Assembly (NCBI RefSeq): GCF_053078305.1
Contig: NZ_CP166879.1
Length of the DNA: 64,000 nucleotides
Direction: 5' to 3' (one strand)
Position numbers and translations under genes: made by a program. The notes beneath the pieces were generated by a model. That model was not told where the DNA came from. It ran no database searches and saw only the letters and a program-made list of their open reading frames with translations. Below, in pieces: positions 41,641 through 51,321 of this stretch. Position 1 is the first letter of the stretch, and every line of letters starts with the position of its first letter.

Positions 41641-44025
41641 TTAGAATGAAAGCCCTTCACCATCAGCCACAATCCTGTACCCCATCGCCTTATAACCCCG
41701 CTGGCGTTTATCCCACATTCTGAGCAGCACTGGATACGCGGTATCCACAAAATCAATGATCCTGACATCGCTTTTACCGGTATGCTCTCTGTGTAGACGT
41801 CCCGCATACTGCTGTAACGTCCCTTTCCATGACACAGGCATGGCAAGAATCAGCGTATCCAGCGGAGGGTGGTCAAATCCCTCACCAATAAGTCTGCCTG
41901 TTGACAACAAAATACGGGGAGAATCAGGAGGAAGAGCATTCAGCCCGGAAATCATCATAGTACGCTTTTTTTTCGATAATCGACTATGGAGAACAAAAGG
42001 CGACAATTTCAGTGTGTTCATCACTGAGGCTATATCATCCAGATGATCTGTACGTTCAGTCAGTACCAGAACTTTACGCCCCTGCCCAAAAGCTTTCATG
42101 GCTTCTTCAGCTATCGCCACCGTTCTGTCATGATCCAGAGCAATTTCTCTGAAAATATCCTGGATTCTCGCATCCGATGGTAAATGACCAGATGTAAAAC
42201 GGGAACGGGTCAGCACCTCCAGATTATGTGGGCTTTCCTTCGGGCGGGACGCTGTATGGCGAATGGCACCACAGTACATAAAAATAATGGGGTGCAGACC
42301 ATCCCGTCGGATTGGTGTTGCCGTCAGGCCAAGCAGATATCTGGCATTCGTTTCCTTCAGAATCGCAGAAAATGAAACCGCGCCAATATGATGGCACTCA
42401 TCCACAATGATTTGCCCATAATTCCTGACCAGAGGTTCAACTTCTCCGTGTCTGGATATGGACTGCACCACCGCAATATCAATATTGCCACAGGGTTTAT
42501 GTTTCCCTCCCCCGATAATACCAATACTGTCACCGGCCTGCAGAAACACCGCGAGACGCTCCTGCCACTGCTTCAGCAATTCAGTCCGGTGTACCAGTAT
42601 CAGTGTATTCACTTTCCGTCTGGCAATCACTGCCGCTGCGGTAACTGTCTTACCAAAAGCCGTTGGCGCACAAAGCACACCAGTGTCATAACGGAGTAAT
42701 GCCGAAACGGCCTCTTCCTGCTCCGCTCTGAGGTTTCCCATAAAAACGGCATTACATTCCGTCCCGGCAAATCGTTTATCGATTAATTCTGCAGCAATAT
42801 TGTTGTCCCTAAGGAAAGATAATACGCTGTCCAGACATCCCCGGGGCAACGCAATGTGTTGCGGGTAATTCTCCGCACAACCTATAACACGGGGCTTATT
42901 CCAGACTGACATACGCATTGCCTGAGCCTTATAAAACTCAGGGTTCGGAAATGCTGCCAGCCGAATAAGTCGGTTAATCAGCACCTGAGGTAATTGCGCT
43001 TTTTCGAAATAGATCTGATTTGCCAGCGTGATTTTCAGCGGTTCAGCAACAGCAAGATTCAGTCTGTTTCCTGATGATTTTTTCCCTTCCCATGGCGTAC
43101 CCAGGTCTTCTTCGTTGATAAAGTTCACATCCAGAGGATGGATACTTCCTGTAGCCCGTAATATCGTCGGTTCAATATCCTGCACATTCATCGGGAGCAC
43201 CGACGCAAGAAAAGCCCACTGATCAGGATGAGGCTGGAAATTCATATCAACAAAAACACTTCCCCCCGATGCACGCGGTCTTTTTTGCAGAGGTAACGCG
43301 ATAAGATTACCAAATCCTCCTTTTGGCATCGTATCCTGATTAGGAAATAATCGGTCATAAGAACTCAATTGCAGCTGTCGGGTCCGGCTGCACGTATAGC
43401 TAATAACAGCAGTCCCCAGACGGCGAGCTTCGCGGGCCGAAACTCGTGAAGCAAAAAATATCCAGACATGCGCTCCCTGACGTGAGCGGGATATTTCCAG
43501 CACAGCGGGTACACCCAGCTCATCACAGGCTCGCATGAACGCGGATGCATCCTTCTGCCATTCAGCTTCATCAAAATCAACAGCCAGAAAATAACAGGAA
43601 TCATCTTCCAGCAACGGATATAACCCGGCAGTATGCGTGCCTGCCAGATGCTGGTAGATGACAAGATCAGATACAGGAATCAACTGACGGTGAACGCAGT
43701 CCCCACATTTTATCCGGGGCTTACCGCATATTCCCAACTGCCATTCGTTAGCGCAGGCCGGCGAGTACCCTGATTTGCCGCTGGTTTTACTTTCCCATCT
43801 AAGTGCCCATACATCATCACGCCCACGAAACAACCGACGAAATAATGCAACCTTCTCGTCGGTGGATAATACAGAAACGCGCTGCACAGGAGTCTGCGGT
43901 TTACGTCTCCATTCAATCCCATGAGCTTCAAGTAATGAGACCAGACGGGCATTTTCTGCCCTCAATGCAGCTAATTCATCGCTGTCAGATTTATGAACCA
44001 TATTCGTTACCTGTATCCGATCCAC
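41641..44025 (-). CDS. Fusion protein: AEP primase-polymerase-like N-terminal domain plus SF2 helicase C-terminal domain (yfjK-position)
   Basis: 794 aa; N-terminal AVDFDE and SRSRQGAHVWIFF plus Cys cluster GICGKPRIKCGDCVH; helicase motifs CAPTAFGKT, VDECHH, TATP, QQYAGRLHR. Confidence 0.7.
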   Translation of the reverse strand: MDRIQVTNMVHKSDSDELAALRAENARLVSLLEAHGIEWRRKPQTPVQRVSVLSTDEKVALFRRLFRGRDDVWALRWESKTSGKSGYSPACANEWQLGICGKPRIKCGDCVHRQLIPVSDLVIYQHLAGTHTAGLYPLLEDDSCYFLAVDFDEAEWQKDASAFMRACDELGVPAVLEISRSRQGAHVWIFFASRVSAREARRLGTAVISYTCSRTRQLQLSSYDRLFPNQDTMPKGGFGNLIALPLQKRPRASGGSVFVDMNFQPHPDQWAFLASVLPMNVQDIEPTILRATGSIHPLDVNFINEEDLGTPWEGKKSSGNRLNLAVAEPLKITLANQIYFEKAQLPQVLINRLIRLAAFPNPEFYKAQAMRMSVWNKPRVIGCAENYPQHIALPRGCLDSVLSFLRDNNIAAELIDKRFAGTECNAVFMGNLRAEQEEAVSALLRYDTGVLCAPTAFGKTVTAAAVIARRKVNTLILVHRTELLKQWQERLAVFLQAGDSIGIIGGGKHKPCGNIDIAVVQSISRHGEVEPLVRNYGQIIVDECHHIGAVSFSAILKETNARYLLGLTATPIRRDGLHPIIFMYCGAIRHTASRPKESPHNLEVLTRSRFTSGHLPSDARIQDIFREIALDHDRTVAIAEEAMKAFGQGRKVLVLTERTDHLDDIASVMNTLKLSPFVLHSRLSKKKRTMMISGLNALPPDSPRILLSTGRLIGEGFDHPPLDTLILAMPVSWKGTLQQYAGRLHREHTGKSDVRIIDFVDTAYPVLLRMWDKRQRGYKAMGYRIVADGEGLSF

Positions 44026-45677: not shown

Positions 45678-47132
45678 TCAGAGGTCAAAGTTAGGTGCGA
45701 CATACCACGTTTTGTCGTCAATAAACTGTACAACTCTGTTTTGCTCATACAGTAAATCCAGTAACCAGTTGAGTTTATCTTTTTTACGGAAACGGTTCGG
45801 ACCACGCTGTAAAATGTCATTTTTTCTCATACAGCGTATCCCCTTCTCAATGCAACAGCTTTTTATCCAGTTGAAAAGTTCAAGCTCCTCTGGAATGAGT
45901 CGCATAGGTACGGTCAGTGCAGAGTTTTCAAACGTTAACGGACTGGATAACCGAATATACTCATCGCCGTACCATATTGCTAATTCTCTCGCCATTTCAG
46001 CAGTGTAGGGGGAAATGTCACCTTCCTCACCGCTAAAATGGTGAATAAGCCCTGCCAGTCTTGCCATATACTCTGCATTTTTAGCAGCATATTCTCTGAA
46101 GTCTCTTAAAGGCCCCAGAACCGACATCTTCGATTCCACATTGTTGTAATAGTCCGTCCAGATTCTGGCTGCCTGAGGAGAAAAGTGAAGGCAACGCCGC
46201 TCTCCCCTCATAGCCAGGCTTTCATCAATGAGTTCATTTATCCTCTGTTCAAACAAATCCTGATACTGTGATGAATAATTATCTCCGGTTATTATTATCC
46301 TTGTCCCCTGCGTTGATGTTGGTTGACACATCAAAAACCTTGCATGATGTCCTGACGTTTTCACAAGTTCTTTTTTTCGTGTACAAAAACCTTTGTGGTA
46401 AACATCAGGCTGAACCATCACCGATATCGTCAGTCTTGGCTCCTTCAAAAAAATTCCGGGAGATGATTTCCTGTCGATGAAAAGAGAACCACCATCCCAC
46501 AAAGAGTTAAGTATTCCCAGTTTACTCATTGCCCGGCTGTCAAAAATTATCCCACCTTCACTGGATACAAGAGCAAAAGAGCGGTTGCTATCAGAATAAT
46601 ATTTTAACATTCCCTCTATCGTTGTATCATTAAAAATTGTTCGATGTATCTGTGGTGGAACAGGACACTTATTCAGATGTGTTTTAAGCTCTGATTCTGT
46701 TGTCTTATAATCTTTACCGGTACGAATCTCTTTATGAAGTTTTGACTCCAGTGCTTTTTGTTTTTGCGCCCATATTTCCTTTTCTGTACTGTAACTCTCA
46801 ACCAGTTTCGCGTATTCTTCCGCCAGGGCTTCATCCCTGAGATAAAATGCTTTCATAAACACTTTATCCACGGTCGTTTTCCTTTCACCAGAATCAGCCA
46901 GAATCATAGAGTAAATATTAGAGGACCCACGTAAATTTCCTGGTCTGCACACATCAACCTGATTCTGACAGGCAATTGACATCGCTGTTAATGCTGCAGT
47001 TATCGCCATAGCTATAGGTGTCTGTGTATTCTTTTGAGTTTCAATTATTGCATTTCTCGCCAGCGGTGGCATTGCATATATCGGACAAGGATTTTCTGGT
47101 GCAAGTAAGCACATAAATGCCTCTCTTTTCAT
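45678..47132 (-). CDS. DUF3987-type protein (YfjI-like)
   Basis: 484-aa ORF; follows alpA as yfjI does in CP4-57; family recalled. Confidence 0.6.
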   Translation of the reverse strand: MKREAFMCLLAPENPCPIYAMPPLARNAIIETQKNTQTPIAMAITAALTAMSIACQNQVDVCRPGNLRGSSNIYSMILADSGERKTTVDKVFMKAFYLRDEALAEEYAKLVESYSTEKEIWAQKQKALESKLHKEIRTGKDYKTTESELKTHLNKCPVPPQIHRTIFNDTTIEGMLKYYSDSNRSFALVSSEGGIIFDSRAMSKLGILNSLWDGGSLFIDRKSSPGIFLKEPRLTISVMVQPDVYHKGFCTRKKELVKTSGHHARFLMCQPTSTQGTRIIITGDNYSSQYQDLFEQRINELIDESLAMRGERRCLHFSPQAARIWTDYYNNVESKMSVLGPLRDFREYAAKNAEYMARLAGLIHHFSGEEGDISPYTAEMARELAIWYGDEYIRLSSPLTFENSALTVPMRLIPEELELFNWIKSCCIEKGIRCMRKNDILQRGPNRFRKKDKLNWLLDLLYEQNRVVQFIDDKTWYVAPNFDL

Positions 47133-47362
47133 TAATGGGTTAGTAAAGTAGCAGCAACTCCCGCTATAATAGCGAAATAGCTGCTGTTCAGACCTAATGT
47201 TCTGAGAAATACAGAATATCTGTAGATCTGATGTTTAATAAACCGATAAGGTTAATTCAGTTCATACTGTGTTATTTACCACGAAATATCATTCATGTTT
47301 CTCATTCTTAACACCTCCTAAAATTATTTCACTAACACCTTCCCCCCGGTCTTTTTCCTTTC

Positions 47363-47590
47363 TCAGGAATCAGCCAGAACCATAGTGTAAATATTAACGG
47401 GCCCACGTAAATTTCCGGGGTTGCACACGTCAATCTGATTCTGACAGGCAATTGACATCGCTGTTAATAATGATGTTGTAGTCATAGCCAGAGATGCTTT
47501 TTCATTGTGTTGAGTTTCAATTATTGCATTTCCAGTCATTGATGGTTGCGCATATACTGGATACGGAGTATCCGGTTTGATGTAAGACAT
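47363..47590 (-). pseudogene. Degenerate tandem duplicate of the 5' end of the yfjI-like gene
   Basis: 75-aa ORF aligns with residues ~7-80 of the 45678..47132 product; flanking DNA also duplicated (about 47330-47700 versus 46870-47230). Confidence 0.6.
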
Positions 47591-47695
47591 AAATATTTCC
47601 TTTTTTCGTAATAACTTTCGGTTATAGCAGCTATTTCCGCTACAATAGCAACAATAGCTGCTATACAGACTGGATATACTGAAAATACAGACAGT

Positions 47696-47944
47696 TCATC
47701 TGGTCTGTATCCAGCAGAGAAGGTCACTTAACAACCATCCGCAAGATTTCTTTCCGATAGACTTACGTGGTGGAAATGTTCCCTCCCGTTCAAGTTTCCA
47801 CGCTTGTGTACGAGAAATTGACGTGATCTCATATCGTTCCTTTTCACGTACCAGTCTGTCGCATTCAATCCCATAAGCTTTCAAAATGACCAGACGCTGT
47901 TCATCTGTTAATGGAAGCCACATACTACCCTCCTGATATATCAA
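47696..47944 (-). CDS. alpA: AlpA-family phage transcriptional regulator
   Basis: C-terminal ISRTQAWKLEREGTFPPRKSIGKKSCGWLLSDLLCWI matches the AlpA HTH pattern; true start may be an internal Met. Confidence 0.7.
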   Translation of the reverse strand: MIYQEGSMWLPLTDEQRLVILKAYGIECDRLVREKERYEITSISRTQAWKLEREGTFPPRKSIGKKSCGWLLSDLLCWIQTR

Positions 47945-48614
47945 TACTTTTTATTTCCGGCATGAGCATGAAATGACTAAGTTTCCCGGATAAACAATGA
48001 GTGAAAGTCACTATCATTCATCCAGTCAACACCTTGCAAATAAAATGTAATACCATGATTTTTATAGGTCAAAATACTGAATTACAATATTAAAATGGCT
48101 TTTAATAGAAAAAATAAAGACATATAGAGCCAAATAAAAACAAGCCGCGACCAATAAAAACAAAAAATTAATATTAAAAATCCATTATGACGATTTTTGT
48201 TGACTAAAATTAGGTTTGGATATATAAATAAATCCATGTAAAATTCAAACAAGGCATGGAGGAGTCGCAGGAAGGTGAAATATTTCCATCTAATTTGTGA
48301 TAATCATCACAAAAATAAGCTACAACAAGCGGAGGAAAAGACAATCTGTTGCTGAACAGACAGAAGCAGGCTACGAATGATCGGAAAATGAAGCAAATAC
48401 GCTTATACAGAAGACGCAGAGGTAACTGACGGAGACAATCACAATCAGGAGAAAATTATCGTAAATAATGTATAAAATCTCAGGATATAAACAAATGTAC
48501 ACAAGCTATCCACGTAATCAGCGGCTGGCTCAGGATTAACGTTTCATTTCAGTGGACAACATCGATTCTGTCTGACAGCGGACCAATATGTAGCAAGCAG
48601 AAACTTCTGACATC

Positions 48615-50252
48615 ATGGTAACTCGGACAATGCAACAAAAGTATCAGTATGATCGTGTTTTATCCGGCGAACTCCACCCATTCCCTGGCATATACGAGGC
48701 GGTTTCCGAACAAATCCTTTTGCTCATTTTTAAAGCACGTCAACTATATCAGGATCCAGAATATCGCCCCTGGTTTGAAGAACAGCACAGAGTACTCTCT
48801 GCATTACGTGCCAATACAGAGCTCCTGAGAATCTTTAGAGAACAAAGAAGCGCTGAAGAACCAAAGCTTACTATTGAAGAGTCTACCTCCCCCCAACCCA
48901 CTCCTTCTGCTCTTACAGATGCGCTTAATGTGATGTGCCATATATACAATGGTTTTGATGAAGGAAATATCAGTCTGAAAACCTGGGGGGCGATGCAAGA
49001 GGTACAGACAACATCAACCTTTATCAGCCCAGGACCGAGAACCTGGAAAACACCTGAACTGGCAAAGTTTGTAGGAGATGATTTATTTAATATTCTGACT
49101 GAATGTAAGGCCTGGAGTTCACCAATTCCAGCAGAAACCCGACAGGGGTATTGCCATCAGGATCTGTCTGTTGCACACTCCTGCACCTCAGAGTTACTGG
49201 CACACCTGAATCAATATCATGAAATTGATGAATCAGCAATACTTGCCAGAGTTATTGGTATAACAGTTAACGGATTCTACAAGAAAAATAATACAGACCT
49301 TCCAGAATGGCTATCCCCCTTTAAAGAGGAACATAAAATATTCAGAGATTGTCCGGAGCAAAATACCGGGGATGTAATCAGACGGAAAGAACAACTGTTG
49401 AAAACAGGACGTACAGAATTCGTGAATAATTTGTGTCGGGTCGCCAACTGGTATGAAATTGAGTCAATATACGATGAATACGTCCGTCTTTATGCCAATG
49501 AAATCATTGACTGGTTCAACAAAACCATGAAGTATTTTAAACCAACAGATTTTATCCGATATACATGGAAATTCGCAACAGTTACTCCGGATAAAGATAC
49601 AGAAACCGGGCATACAACTGCATGGGAAAAGGATTATTGCCAGATAACCATACAACGTGATGAACTTCTGAGGTTGATTCACACCAATACCCTTCAGGAT
49701 GCAGTAATTTATCTTTGTCATTGTCTGCAGAAGGAATACAAGAAATCATCCCAAAATGAGATAGAGTTCCCAGGAATAAAACCTCCGACATCAGAGAGTA
49801 AAATTAATATAACAAATAATATTAAATTTCATTCTCTCCTGGAGCTCAGTAAAGATAATGAGAAGCGTCTGGAAACATTTCAAAAATGGTATGAAAAAAA
49901 TAAAGTTTTGTTAGAAAGTCATAAACAAAAACGAACAGAGAAGATTGACGTTGCCGTACGACTTGTAGGGCTGAAAGCCTATGATCTGCATGAAGGGATT
50001 CCGGATAGTCCAAAACGAAAAGTTAAAGATGGCATAAATGAAGACATCAAAGCCGATACCAGTTTACGCCTGTCAAAGACAAATATAAGTGATACGTCGC
50101 TAAACCGTTATCGCCGCACTGTTAAGGAGATTATCAATAACGAAATTGACGCATTCCTGTTGGAACAGAAGAAAAAAAATAAAAGATTTCCCTACAGTGA
50201 AGATAGAGATGTGATTCGACCTTTATGGGGAAAATGCCTGACCGGGCAGTAG
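48615..50252 (+). CDS. Uncharacterised low-GC protein
   Basis: 545-aa ORF, A+T-rich, preceded by about 670 nt of AT-rich non-coding DNA; no recognised motifs. Confidence 0.5.
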   Translation: MVTRTMQQKYQYDRVLSGELHPFPGIYEAVSEQILLLIFKARQLYQDPEYRPWFEEQHRVLSALRANTELLRIFREQRSAEEPKLTIEESTSPQPTPSALTDALNVMCHIYNGFDEGNISLKTWGAMQEVQTTSTFISPGPRTWKTPELAKFVGDDLFNILTECKAWSSPIPAETRQGYCHQDLSVAHSCTSELLAHLNQYHEIDESAILARVIGITVNGFYKKNNTDLPEWLSPFKEEHKIFRDCPEQNTGDVIRRKEQLLKTGRTEFVNNLCRVANWYEIESIYDEYVRLYANEIIDWFNKTMKYFKPTDFIRYTWKFATVTPDKDTETGHTTAWEKDYCQITIQRDELLRLIHTNTLQDAVIYLCHCLQKEYKKSSQNEIEFPGIKPPTSESKINITNNIKFHSLLELSKDNEKRLETFQKWYEKNKVLLESHKQKRTEKIDVAVRLVGLKAYDLHEGIPDSPKRKVKDGINEDIKADTSLRLSKTNISDTSLNRYRRTVKEIINNEIDAFLLEQKKKNKRFPYSEDRDVIRPLWGKCLTGQ

Positions 50253-50338
50253 ATCACAGATGGGATAACATCCCGGTTATCCCCTGTTTGTTCTGCTTCA
50301 GGTTGCCAGAGCTCCAGGAACACGAGGCAATCGGCAAA

Positions 50339-50935
50339 TTATGCGGCTTTTCCATTAACAGATTCGACCACAAGAACAACACCGTGTTTGTTTCGATCAG
50401 GATGTTCACTCCAGATTTCTGATTCAGGAATACTTTCCCCATCATAGCAGATCCGATCACCATCAAACGGATAATACCGTGCGGAATCTGTATCTAAGAT
50501 AAACACCTTAAGATTCGTTGAACGACGCGCTATATGCTGCCAGAGGGCTTTACCTCCTTCATATTGCTCGTTATCACTTAATAGTATAACGCCTGCTTTT
50601 GTGGCTATTGTTTCATAAACAAACGTAGCAAGGCTAACATCACGTACAGCGCCATCGACAACAATCCCTTCAATCTGAGCAACGTCCTGTTCTTCCCAGA
50701 ATTTCCGGACAACCCCCCCTTCAAGCTGTGAACGACGCTGAAGCTCCAGAGTGGCAACAACCTTATAGCGAATATCACCATCAATAACAGAAGGTGCAGC
50801 TTCGATTACCGCAGCGAACGGAGTCTTTGGATCCCAGATGATCTGGTAAAGCACACCCTGAATAGTTACTCCATCCAGTATCGAAAAACGACGAGCTACA
50901 GTAGCAGGGGAGTAAGACATTGGAATGACAGCCAT
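50339..50935 (-). CDS. Uncharacterised protein adjacent to thrW
   Basis: 198-aa ORF convergent with the 545-aa gene; no recognised motifs. Confidence 0.45.
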   Translation of the reverse strand: MAVIPMSYSPATVARRFSILDGVTIQGVLYQIIWDPKTPFAAVIEAAPSVIDGDIRYKVVATLELQRRSQLEGGVVRKFWEEQDVAQIEGIVVDGAVRDVSLATFVYETIATKAGVILLSDNEQYEGGKALWQHIARRSTNLKVFILDTDSARYYPFDGDRICYDGESIPESEIWSEHPDRNKHGVVLVVESVNGKAA

Positions 50936-51235: not shown

Positions 51236-51291
51236 TTGATTTAAATGGTGCCGATAATAGGAGTCGAACCTACGACCTTCGCATTACGAAT
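51236..51291 (-). repeat. thrW-proximal att repeat (3' 46 nt of tRNA-Thr plus ttgatttaaa)
   Basis: Identical to 5333..5388. Confidence 0.85.
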
Positions 51292-51321
51292 GCGCTGCTC
51301 TACCAACTGAGCTATATCGGC
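51246..51321 (-). tRNA. thrW: tRNA-Thr (anticodon CGU)
   Basis: Reverse complement GCCGATATAGCTCAGTTGGTAGAGCAGCGCATTCGTAATGCGAAGGTCGTAGGTTCGACTCCTATTATCGGCACCA; 76 nt with CCA end; immediately downstream of proA. Confidence 0.95.

Follow-up and report, generated by a model that had tools for sequence, protein, structure and literature searches.

Gene content of the locus

The locus described here lies in a window of 64,000 nucleotides (the whole stretch of DNA that was analysed, from contig NZ_CP166879.1 of assembly GCF_053078305.1) and belongs to an island at the tRNA gene thrW. Read along the minus strand, the order is thrW, two hypothetical genes, an alpA-like gene, a palindrome (palindrome B), a 5' fragment of a DUF3987/YfjI gene, a linker, a second palindrome (palindrome A), an intact yfjI-like gene, a YagK/YfjJ-like gene, and a gene for a TOTE AEP-primase/helicase. 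The coordinates of the features are summarized in Table 1.

Table 1. Features of the alpA–yfjI region in the window and the corresponding site of E. coli K-12
Feature	Position	Strand	Evidence and remarks
tRNA-Thr (thrW)	51321..51246	-	adjoins proA
alpA-like gene, 75 aa	47696..47923	-	PF05930 Phage_AlpA, E=1.7e-13; PGAP "helix-turn-helix transcriptional regulator"
Palindrome B	47623..47665	.	inverted repeat; nhmmer E=1.3e-7; unit cluster "-++--+"
Leader B	47591..47622	-	Shine-Dalgarno-like AAGGAAA ahead of the fragment ATG; read from the sequence
5' fragment of DUF3987/YfjI gene, 75 codons to stop, pseudogene	47363..47590	-	PF13148, E=1.5e-8
Linker between copies A and B	47216..47318	-	103 nt
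Palindrome A	47148..47186	.	more degenerate four-unit element; nhmmer E=1.3e-6
Intact yfjI-like gene, 478 aa (PGAP start)	45678..47114	-	PF13148, E=6.9e-84; PGAP "YfjI family protein"
K-12 palindrome site	NC_000913, about 2,758,903-2,758,943

The alpA-like gene is located directly upstream of copy B on the gene strand. Both DUF3987 reading frames score above the PF13148 gathering cut-off of 27, the intact gene with 282.5 bits and the fragment with 34.7 bits, and an alternative in-frame ATG upstream of the annotated start of the intact gene, at 47132, would give a product of 484 aa. The gene for the TOTE conflict-system AEP-primase and SF2 helicase (794 aa, 41641-44025, minus strand) lies downstream of yfjI and the yagK/yfjJ-like gene, so that the module couples a DUF3987 protein with a separate archaeo-eukaryotic-type primase.

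An 861-bp query covering 47100-47960 is 99.9% identical to the thrW island of E. coli Ecol_AZ146, in which the fragment is already labelled by PGAP as [quoted passage not shown]. The interval between thrW and alpA holds two hypothetical genes without a Pfam match, for proteins of 198 aa (minus strand) and 545 aa (plus strand), but no integrase (48615-50935 and 51246-51321); in the K-12 prophage CP4-57, the equivalent position is occupied by intA-yfjH. Elsewhere, the thrW island (in Ecol_AZ146, and in the window below about 41000) carries a complete myo-inositol utilisation (iol) cluster, a srfJ-like gene, an Rpn nuclease and insertion elements of the IS110, IS200, IS91 and IS66 types. It is a large mosaic island, not a compact satellite. 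Given the heavy rearrangement and the lack of an integrase beside thrW, the YfjI module in this strain may be an inactive relic.

Anatomy of the palindromes

An earlier note on this DNA had reported a perfect 10-bp inverted repeat between alpA and the fragment, together with a degenerate second copy ahead of the intact gene. Both are there. The 10-bp arm AGCAGCTATT occupies plus-strand positions 47626-47635 and its reverse complement 47653-47662, the sole other exact copy of the arm in the window is at 47176-47185, and the degenerate copy was located as palindrome A. A 10-bp inverted repeat alone is not rare in this DNA: about a dozen distinct sites in the window combine perfect arms of 10 nt or more with a loop of 20 nt or less, compared with about 1.2 in Markov-1 random sequence. 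Clusters of GCTAY/RTAGC units, by contrast, occur in the window only at the two palindromes and in 0 of 30 random windows.

The perfect arms of palindrome B can be extended to 11 nt (47625-47635 and 47654-47664), and they form part of a larger dyad with 20-nt arms (47623-47642 and 47646-47665) that are 85% complementary around a 3-nt centre. On the gene strand, the dyad resolves into two direct and two inverted units, each about 9 bp long: cAGCTATT, gtTGCTATT, a single g, TAGCGGaa and ATAGCTGc. Palindrome A has the outer arms AGCAGC and GCTGCT and an inner CGCTAT-A-ATAGCG. The two palindromes end at nearly the same distance from the start codons that follow them, 33 nt for palindrome A and 32 nt for palindrome B. 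There is no central spacer in the palindrome; the leader past it appears A+T-rich by eye, both in the window and in K-12. A unit-cluster scan of the window found no separate direct-repeat origin.

Two short reading frames that touch the palindromes were considered and set aside. A 63-aa open reading frame at 47536..47727 on the minus strand is an artefact of GCT/ATT repeats, and a leader peptide running across the palindrome in some Enterobacterales (an open reading frame beginning MFILLF) was rejected by eye, since its start codon is missing in K-12 and in one further locus (L010).

Duplication of the 5' region and decay of the fragment

The two palindromes belong to larger repeats. Copy A (46843-47215) and copy B (47319-47691) are direct repeats with a period of 476 bp, each consisting of a palindrome, a leader and a yfjI-like 5' end; copy A leads into the intact gene, copy B into the 75-codon fragment. 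Alignments thus bear out the earlier observation that each palindrome precedes such a 5' end. The similarity of the two regions, which that note had left to be checked, is far beyond chance: BLASTN of 46858-47215 against 47334-47691 gives 76% identity over 366 columns (E=8e-67), and the match is ungapped from 46843-47136 to 47319-47612 at the 476-bp spacing. The duplication is old, neither recent nor specific to this strain, because the copies are 24% diverged and the arrangement is spread over E. coli. The module was found in about 1,400 of 5,426 complete E. coli genomes, nearly all of which have both the fragment and the intact gene; a single-copy form occurs in a few. In these genomes, the module sits behind at least three different alpA variants and in several island variants, and both palindrome copies are kept in all of the duplicated island variants examined.

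The earlier proposal of a tandem duplication holds as far as the two adjacent direct copies are concerned, but not in its simplest form. A head-to-tail event predicts that the linker resembles the 3' end of alpA, and the best correspondence (47225-47318 against 47701-47794) was equalled or exceeded by 161 of 500 shuffles. A simple head-to-tail duplication was therefore rejected for want of an alpA-3'-like junction, as was the idea that the linker is a decayed alpA 3' end, whose similarity is not significant and which has no match elsewhere. The linker matches nothing else in any fetched locus and is seen in duplicated islands only, where it is 87-92% conserved between island variants, above the adjacent fragment (82%). 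It contains a nine-codon mini-ORF, MRNMNDISW* (47305..47276, minus strand), behind a strong AGGAGG (47319..47314); this mini-ORF is kept in UTI89 with a synonymous change.

The fragment is an old, decaying pseudogene that erodes faster than the intact gene. Its protein and the N-terminal 75 residues of the intact gene product are 61% identical, and its similarity to the intact gene reaches beyond the stop codon to 47319. Comparison of island variants gives 82% identity and 10-12 gapped positions for the fragment, against 86-91% identity without any gap for the corresponding part of the intact gene, and the reading frame of the fragment is shortened further, at differing points, in UTI89, O157 and MRE162. 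No full-length protein with the N-terminus of the fragment ("B-type") was found among 5.8 billion proteins, where the only relatives are 47-94 aa long, and in E. coli this N-terminus occurs as the fragment only. The fragment thus did not arrive recently from a living allele, and recombination with an extant B-type yfjI allele was dropped as an explanation. In short, the duplication is ordinary pseudogene debris that is already annotated, and it matters only if the second site is functional.

Conservation of the element across bacteria

Absence of the palindrome from homologous loci had been named in the earlier note as grounds for refutation; the palindrome is present there and strongly conserved. 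In CP4-57 of K-12, GCTATTTCCGCCATTAATAGCGGAATAGC lies between alpA and yfjI. The palindrome core also precedes YfjI homologues with about 40% identity to that of the window in Dickeya, Phytobacter, Mangrovibacter, Siccibacter, Brenneria, Pectobacterium, Buttiauxella, Yersinia, Kluyvera, Kosakonia and Citrobacter. In all Enterobacterales loci, it is found directly downstream of alpA and 30-60 nt ahead of yfjI, while the intergenic DNA that flanks the core differs among them. A profile built from eight palindrome copies and used in an nhmmer-type search gave further matches near YfjI homologues of about 30% identity in Pseudomonas, Shewanella, Providencia, Morganella, Serratia, Rugamonas and viral contigs.

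When the sequences are aligned on the palindrome, the consensus consists of four units of about 9 bp: N3-GCTATT, N3-GCTAYT, 1-3 nt, TAGC-N3 and AATAGC-N3. An extended form, found in Betaproteobacteria and others, consists of four direct units repeated every 9 bp and four inverted ones, with about 26 nt of spacer in between; in one locus (L060), divergent arrays surround an AT-rich spacer.

Under a relaxed criterion, 47 of 80 species-representative loci have an array no more than 2.5 kb from the DUF3987 gene, compared with 0-4 of 85 when the loci are shuffled, and the other 33 have none within that distance; under a strict criterion, unit clusters were absent from shuffled and random sequence. 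Among IMG/VR loci, a set that partly overlaps contigs already counted, arrays were detected in 20 of 43 (0-2 in shuffles). All of these loci were selected for YfjI, so the co-occurrence of array and YfjI is partly built in. In a scan that started from the motif instead, 10 of 15 matches adjoin a YfjI gene, and all 10 of these genuine matches also carry alpA. The position of the array relative to the genes varies: it lies at most 200 nt upstream of the DUF3987 gene in 15 loci, at most 200 nt downstream in another 15, and upstream of alpA in at least seven, at 80-300 nt in the Pseudomonas type. The palindrome is a genuine conserved cis-element made of GCTAYT-type repeats that accompanies YfjI/DUF3987 genes, whatever the type of AlpA and whatever the order of the genes. 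The literature searched, on yfjI/AlpA sites, DUF3987 origins and CP4-57 replication, contained no description of the element.

Several individual loci deserve mention. In Kosakonia pseudosacchari (L021), a different perfect palindrome, TATCAGTTGTG-N13-CACAACTGATA, occupies the usual place of the GCTATT element at about 2395-2440, between alpA and a YfjI homologue of 37% identity; it may represent an alternative specificity. A Magnetococcales metagenome-assembled genome (L037) carries a perfect 3+3 palindrome of CTGCTATTC units at 4125-4190, and the left half of it is repeated about 250 nt downstream (4403-4434), so that more than one iteron cluster is present there, as in the window. In two high-GC loci, extended arrays lie inside small open reading frames that overlap the end of the DUF3987 gene (L075, 3922-4260; L037, 4391-4603); the deduced peptides, rich in A-I-A-A-I-P-A, are probably artefacts of the GCT/ATT repeat. 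DUF3987 genes on plasmids belong mainly to large plasmids and to misassigned records of chromosomal size, not to sole replicons, so that plasmids say nothing as a natural test of replication.

Dyad symmetry and alternative explanations

The dyad symmetry of the element is held by compensatory changes. In 37 sequences with 18 pairs of positions, 86.5% of cells are paired and 9 of the 18 pairs show double changes; the covariation score is 0.245, compared with 0.127 in shuffles (0 of 500 reach 0.245) and at most 0.128 when the partners are slid. Such symmetry could reflect either a structure formed by a single strand or a double-stranded site, and a hairpin or cruciform was considered, either as a signal for RNA processing, RNA stability or attenuation that would act between alpA and yfjI, or as a priming hairpin in single-stranded DNA. 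The arms covary at positions without sequence conservation (the inner triplets and outer flanks), the stems predicted for sense RNA are stable (-23.4 kcal/mol for copy B, -18.1 for copy A), and in the window-type group the sense-strand hairpin is always the more stable one. Across the family, however, this strand preference disappears (20 sense, 12 antisense, 5 equal), and strand-specific RNA stability was rejected on that account. An intrinsic terminator or a known structured RNA was likewise rejected: neither copy was called as a terminator or has a U-tract, and the single Rfam match, a chance one with a microRNA hairpin model, stays below threshold (22.8 bits; gathering score 110). The element is found on either side of genes. 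A plain hairpin would not be expected to show the 9-bp periodicity, nor extended arrays whose units are symmetric but whose spacers lack complementarity. The absence of a U-tract, an Rfam family and a strand bias, together with the non-complementary spacers, favours a double-stranded, symmetric protein-binding array, and we regard a structural hairpin as quite unlikely. Loss of function is a different possibility, namely that both copies are relics in a degraded island and that copy B is merely part of a pseudogene. This would suit an island riddled with IS elements and lacking an integrase beside thrW, a degenerate palindrome A and a decaying fragment; moreover, palindrome B is 88-95% conserved and the fragment 82%, an excess that on 43 nt is not significant by itself. 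Yet the element has been kept across genera and classes while the adjacent intergenic sequence has not, and every duplicated island variant examined retains both copies, which makes a mere relic very improbable.

If the element binds a protein, as its conservation at homologous loci makes plausible, the question is which one. The earlier note had called it a candidate regulator-binding site with AlpA as a possible partner; the binding site remains a reasonable proposal, and AlpA as the specific partner is not favoured by the sequence comparisons. What can be said for an AlpA-family winged-helix regulator that binds the palindrome and activates or represses yfjI transcription is mainly a matter of position and company. 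In the Enterobacterales, the palindrome comes directly after alpA and shortly ahead of yfjI; the Pseudomonas-type palindromes lie upstream of alpA, and in at least seven loci the site could as well belong to a promoter under AlpA control; alpA and yfjI occur together in most loci, as they do in all of the genuine motif-first matches; and AlpA switches on its own operon in phage-inducible chromosomal islands (PICIs) of E. coli (PMC6092414). An AlpA operator would also be expected to track the type of regulator and to need the regulator, and across the array loci it does neither. The window-type and K-12-type AlpA proteins are alignable over their last 29 residues only (34% identity), with helix-turn-helix parts that cannot be aligned, and yet an identical palindrome core follows both. 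Conversely, L021 combines a K-12-type AlpA (63% identity) with a different palindrome beside a more divergent YfjI. Iterated profile searches found no AlpA homologue in 10 of the 47 array-bearing loci, and the 15 arrays just downstream of a DUF3987 gene are not where such an operator would be sought. No sigma-70-like promoter was predicted at either palindrome by a crude consensus scan, which would miss activator-dependent promoters. AlpA is disfavoured because the core is shared by two AlpA types, because of the 10 loci without AlpA and because of the arrays downstream of the DUF3987 gene, and we consider an AlpA operator unlikely. The analogy with AlpA of Pseudomonas aeruginosa, an antiterminator with a GGGACG element, was also set aside, as that protein is described as a larger, eight-helix, Q-like factor (PMC9371919) and is by description distinct from the 75-aa PF05930 AlpA.

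The YfjI protein and a proposed role for the array

The other protein that accompanies the array is YfjI itself. DUF3987 has been described as a predicted helicase that takes the place of MCM, RepA or DnaB in fusions with primases (PMC5862659), and replication of PICMI satellites requires a DUF3987 "prim" gene (PMC10803314). An AlphaFold model of YfjI built with 70 homologues (pLDDT 90.7) has an AAA+ core and a C-terminal winged helix at residues ~408-474, which carries the best-conserved C-terminal motif of the family, KNxIxQYGPNxxR. The nearest solved folds to the AAA+ core are MCM subunits, ORC/Cdc6 and ComM, all of them weak matches (Foldseek E ~1e-4, TM 0.3-0.4). YfjI is thus predicted, from its modelled fold, to be an AAA+ helicase or initiator-like protein. 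The idea that the "KN" motif of the winged helix tracks the presence of arrays was abandoned when relaxed detection showed arrays beside proteins without the motif.

We propose, with roughly even confidence for and against, that the palindrome is an iteron array bound by YfjI/DUF3987 and serves as the origin and/or the auto-operator of the island module. According to this proposal, a compact inverted array of ~9-bp iterons with a GCTAYT core would be the cis-acting hallmark of YfjI/DUF3987 modules, in integrative islands as well as in satellites. The AAA+ (MCM/ORC-like) protein YfjI would bind the iterons through its C-terminal winged helix, and the symmetric 2+2 layout of the units would position two oppositely oriented protein assemblies. 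The site might then act as the replication origin or helicase-loading site of the module and, in loci where yfjI follows directly, as in the window, as an auto-regulatory operator as well. Copy B and the 75-codon fragment would stem from an old partial duplication of the site, the leader and the 5' coding region. YfjI as the binder, and the site as origin and/or operator, are what we infer.

Two features expected of iteron origins are seen at these loci: the arrays are regular and built of short units (9-bp period, 2+2 in the compact and 4+4 in the extended form), and they adjoin an initiator or helicase gene, with 30 arrays within 200 nt of a DUF3987 gene. Against the proposal stand the compact palindrome, which has no obvious AT-rich melting region at its centre, the array-less loci (33 of 80), the weakness of the fold matches to MCM, and the compensatory symmetry at non-conserved positions, which would also suit a hairpin or cruciform.

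A bolder version is that the 9-bp GCTAYT iteron is a family-wide code of DUF3987 helicase-initiators, marking the origins of CP4-57-like islands and satellites, and that the two palindromes of the window, 476 bp apart, form a bipartite origin. We hold this to be doubtful. If true, the iteron code would span from Enterobacterales to Pseudomonas, Shewanella and Betaproteobacteria, and a bipartite origin, comparable to P4 ori plus crr, would account for the retention of the duplication by about 1,400 E. coli genomes despite the decay of the fragment.

YfjI/DUF3987 genes are used as a "primase/replication" marker in catalogues of satellites and islands, and neither the DNA target of YfjI/DUF3987 nor the origins of CP4-57-type islands were found in the literature searched. 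With a conserved repeat code beside these genes, origins could be sought by sequence in hundreds of islands. The code also advises caution: not every site that adjoins alpA should be credited to AlpA.

Comparison with known systems

In the iteron plasmids F (RepE) and pSC101 (RepA), an inverted half-iteron operator before the rep gene mediates autorepression. The layout alpA-palindrome-yfjI matches this, with an inverted repeat of a putative origin-type unit just before a putative initiator gene; the Rep proteins, however, are not AAA+ helicases, and the window has no separate direct-repeat origin. In satellite P4, the iterons of ori and crr, whose unit is TGTTCACC, are bound by the winged-helix origin-binding domain of the alpha primase-helicase. 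P4 and the window have in common an island protein of the primase/helicase type that ends in a winged helix; in both, the short repeats run in either direction and form two clusters at a distance from each other (476 bp in the window). They differ in the TGTTCACC unit of P4 and in the helicase domain of alpha, which belongs to a different family.

P4 alpha/ori is also mentioned in the study of PICIs (PMC6092414), according to which PICI/SaPI origins consist of two sets of iterons immediately 3' of the initiator gene. Here too, short iterons in two sets lie beside what would be the primase/initiator gene of an island, and the islands of this kind also have int and alpA. The 15 arrays just 3' of a DUF3987 gene and the arrays around the AT-rich spacer of L060 come close to that arrangement. 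The differences are that the protein here is a stand-alone DUF3987 protein in place of the PICI Pri-Rep, and that the Enterobacterales array, a putative origin, precedes the gene as a compact 2+2 palindrome and lacks an AT-rich segment at its centre; the GCTAYT unit itself was not found in the literature searched. A further analogue is PIME, in which int-alpA-repA is followed by an oriV of four iterons downstream of repA, as verified with a plasmid maintenance assay (bioRxiv 10.64898/2026.01.12.698999). The order int-alpA-replicase and an iteron origin adjoining the replicase are shared features, whereas PIME has conjugation genes and a DnaA box, and the term DUF3987 is absent from the main text of that paper, so that it serves as an analogue only.

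The closest relative is CP4-57 of K-12, a direct homologue in which alpA is followed by GCTATTTCCGCCATTAATAGCGGAATAGC, yfjI, yfjJ and a helicase gene. It differs from the window in having a single copy and no 5' fragment, and in the divergence of its proteins, AlpA being 34% identical over 29 aa and YfjI 42% identical to the window's.
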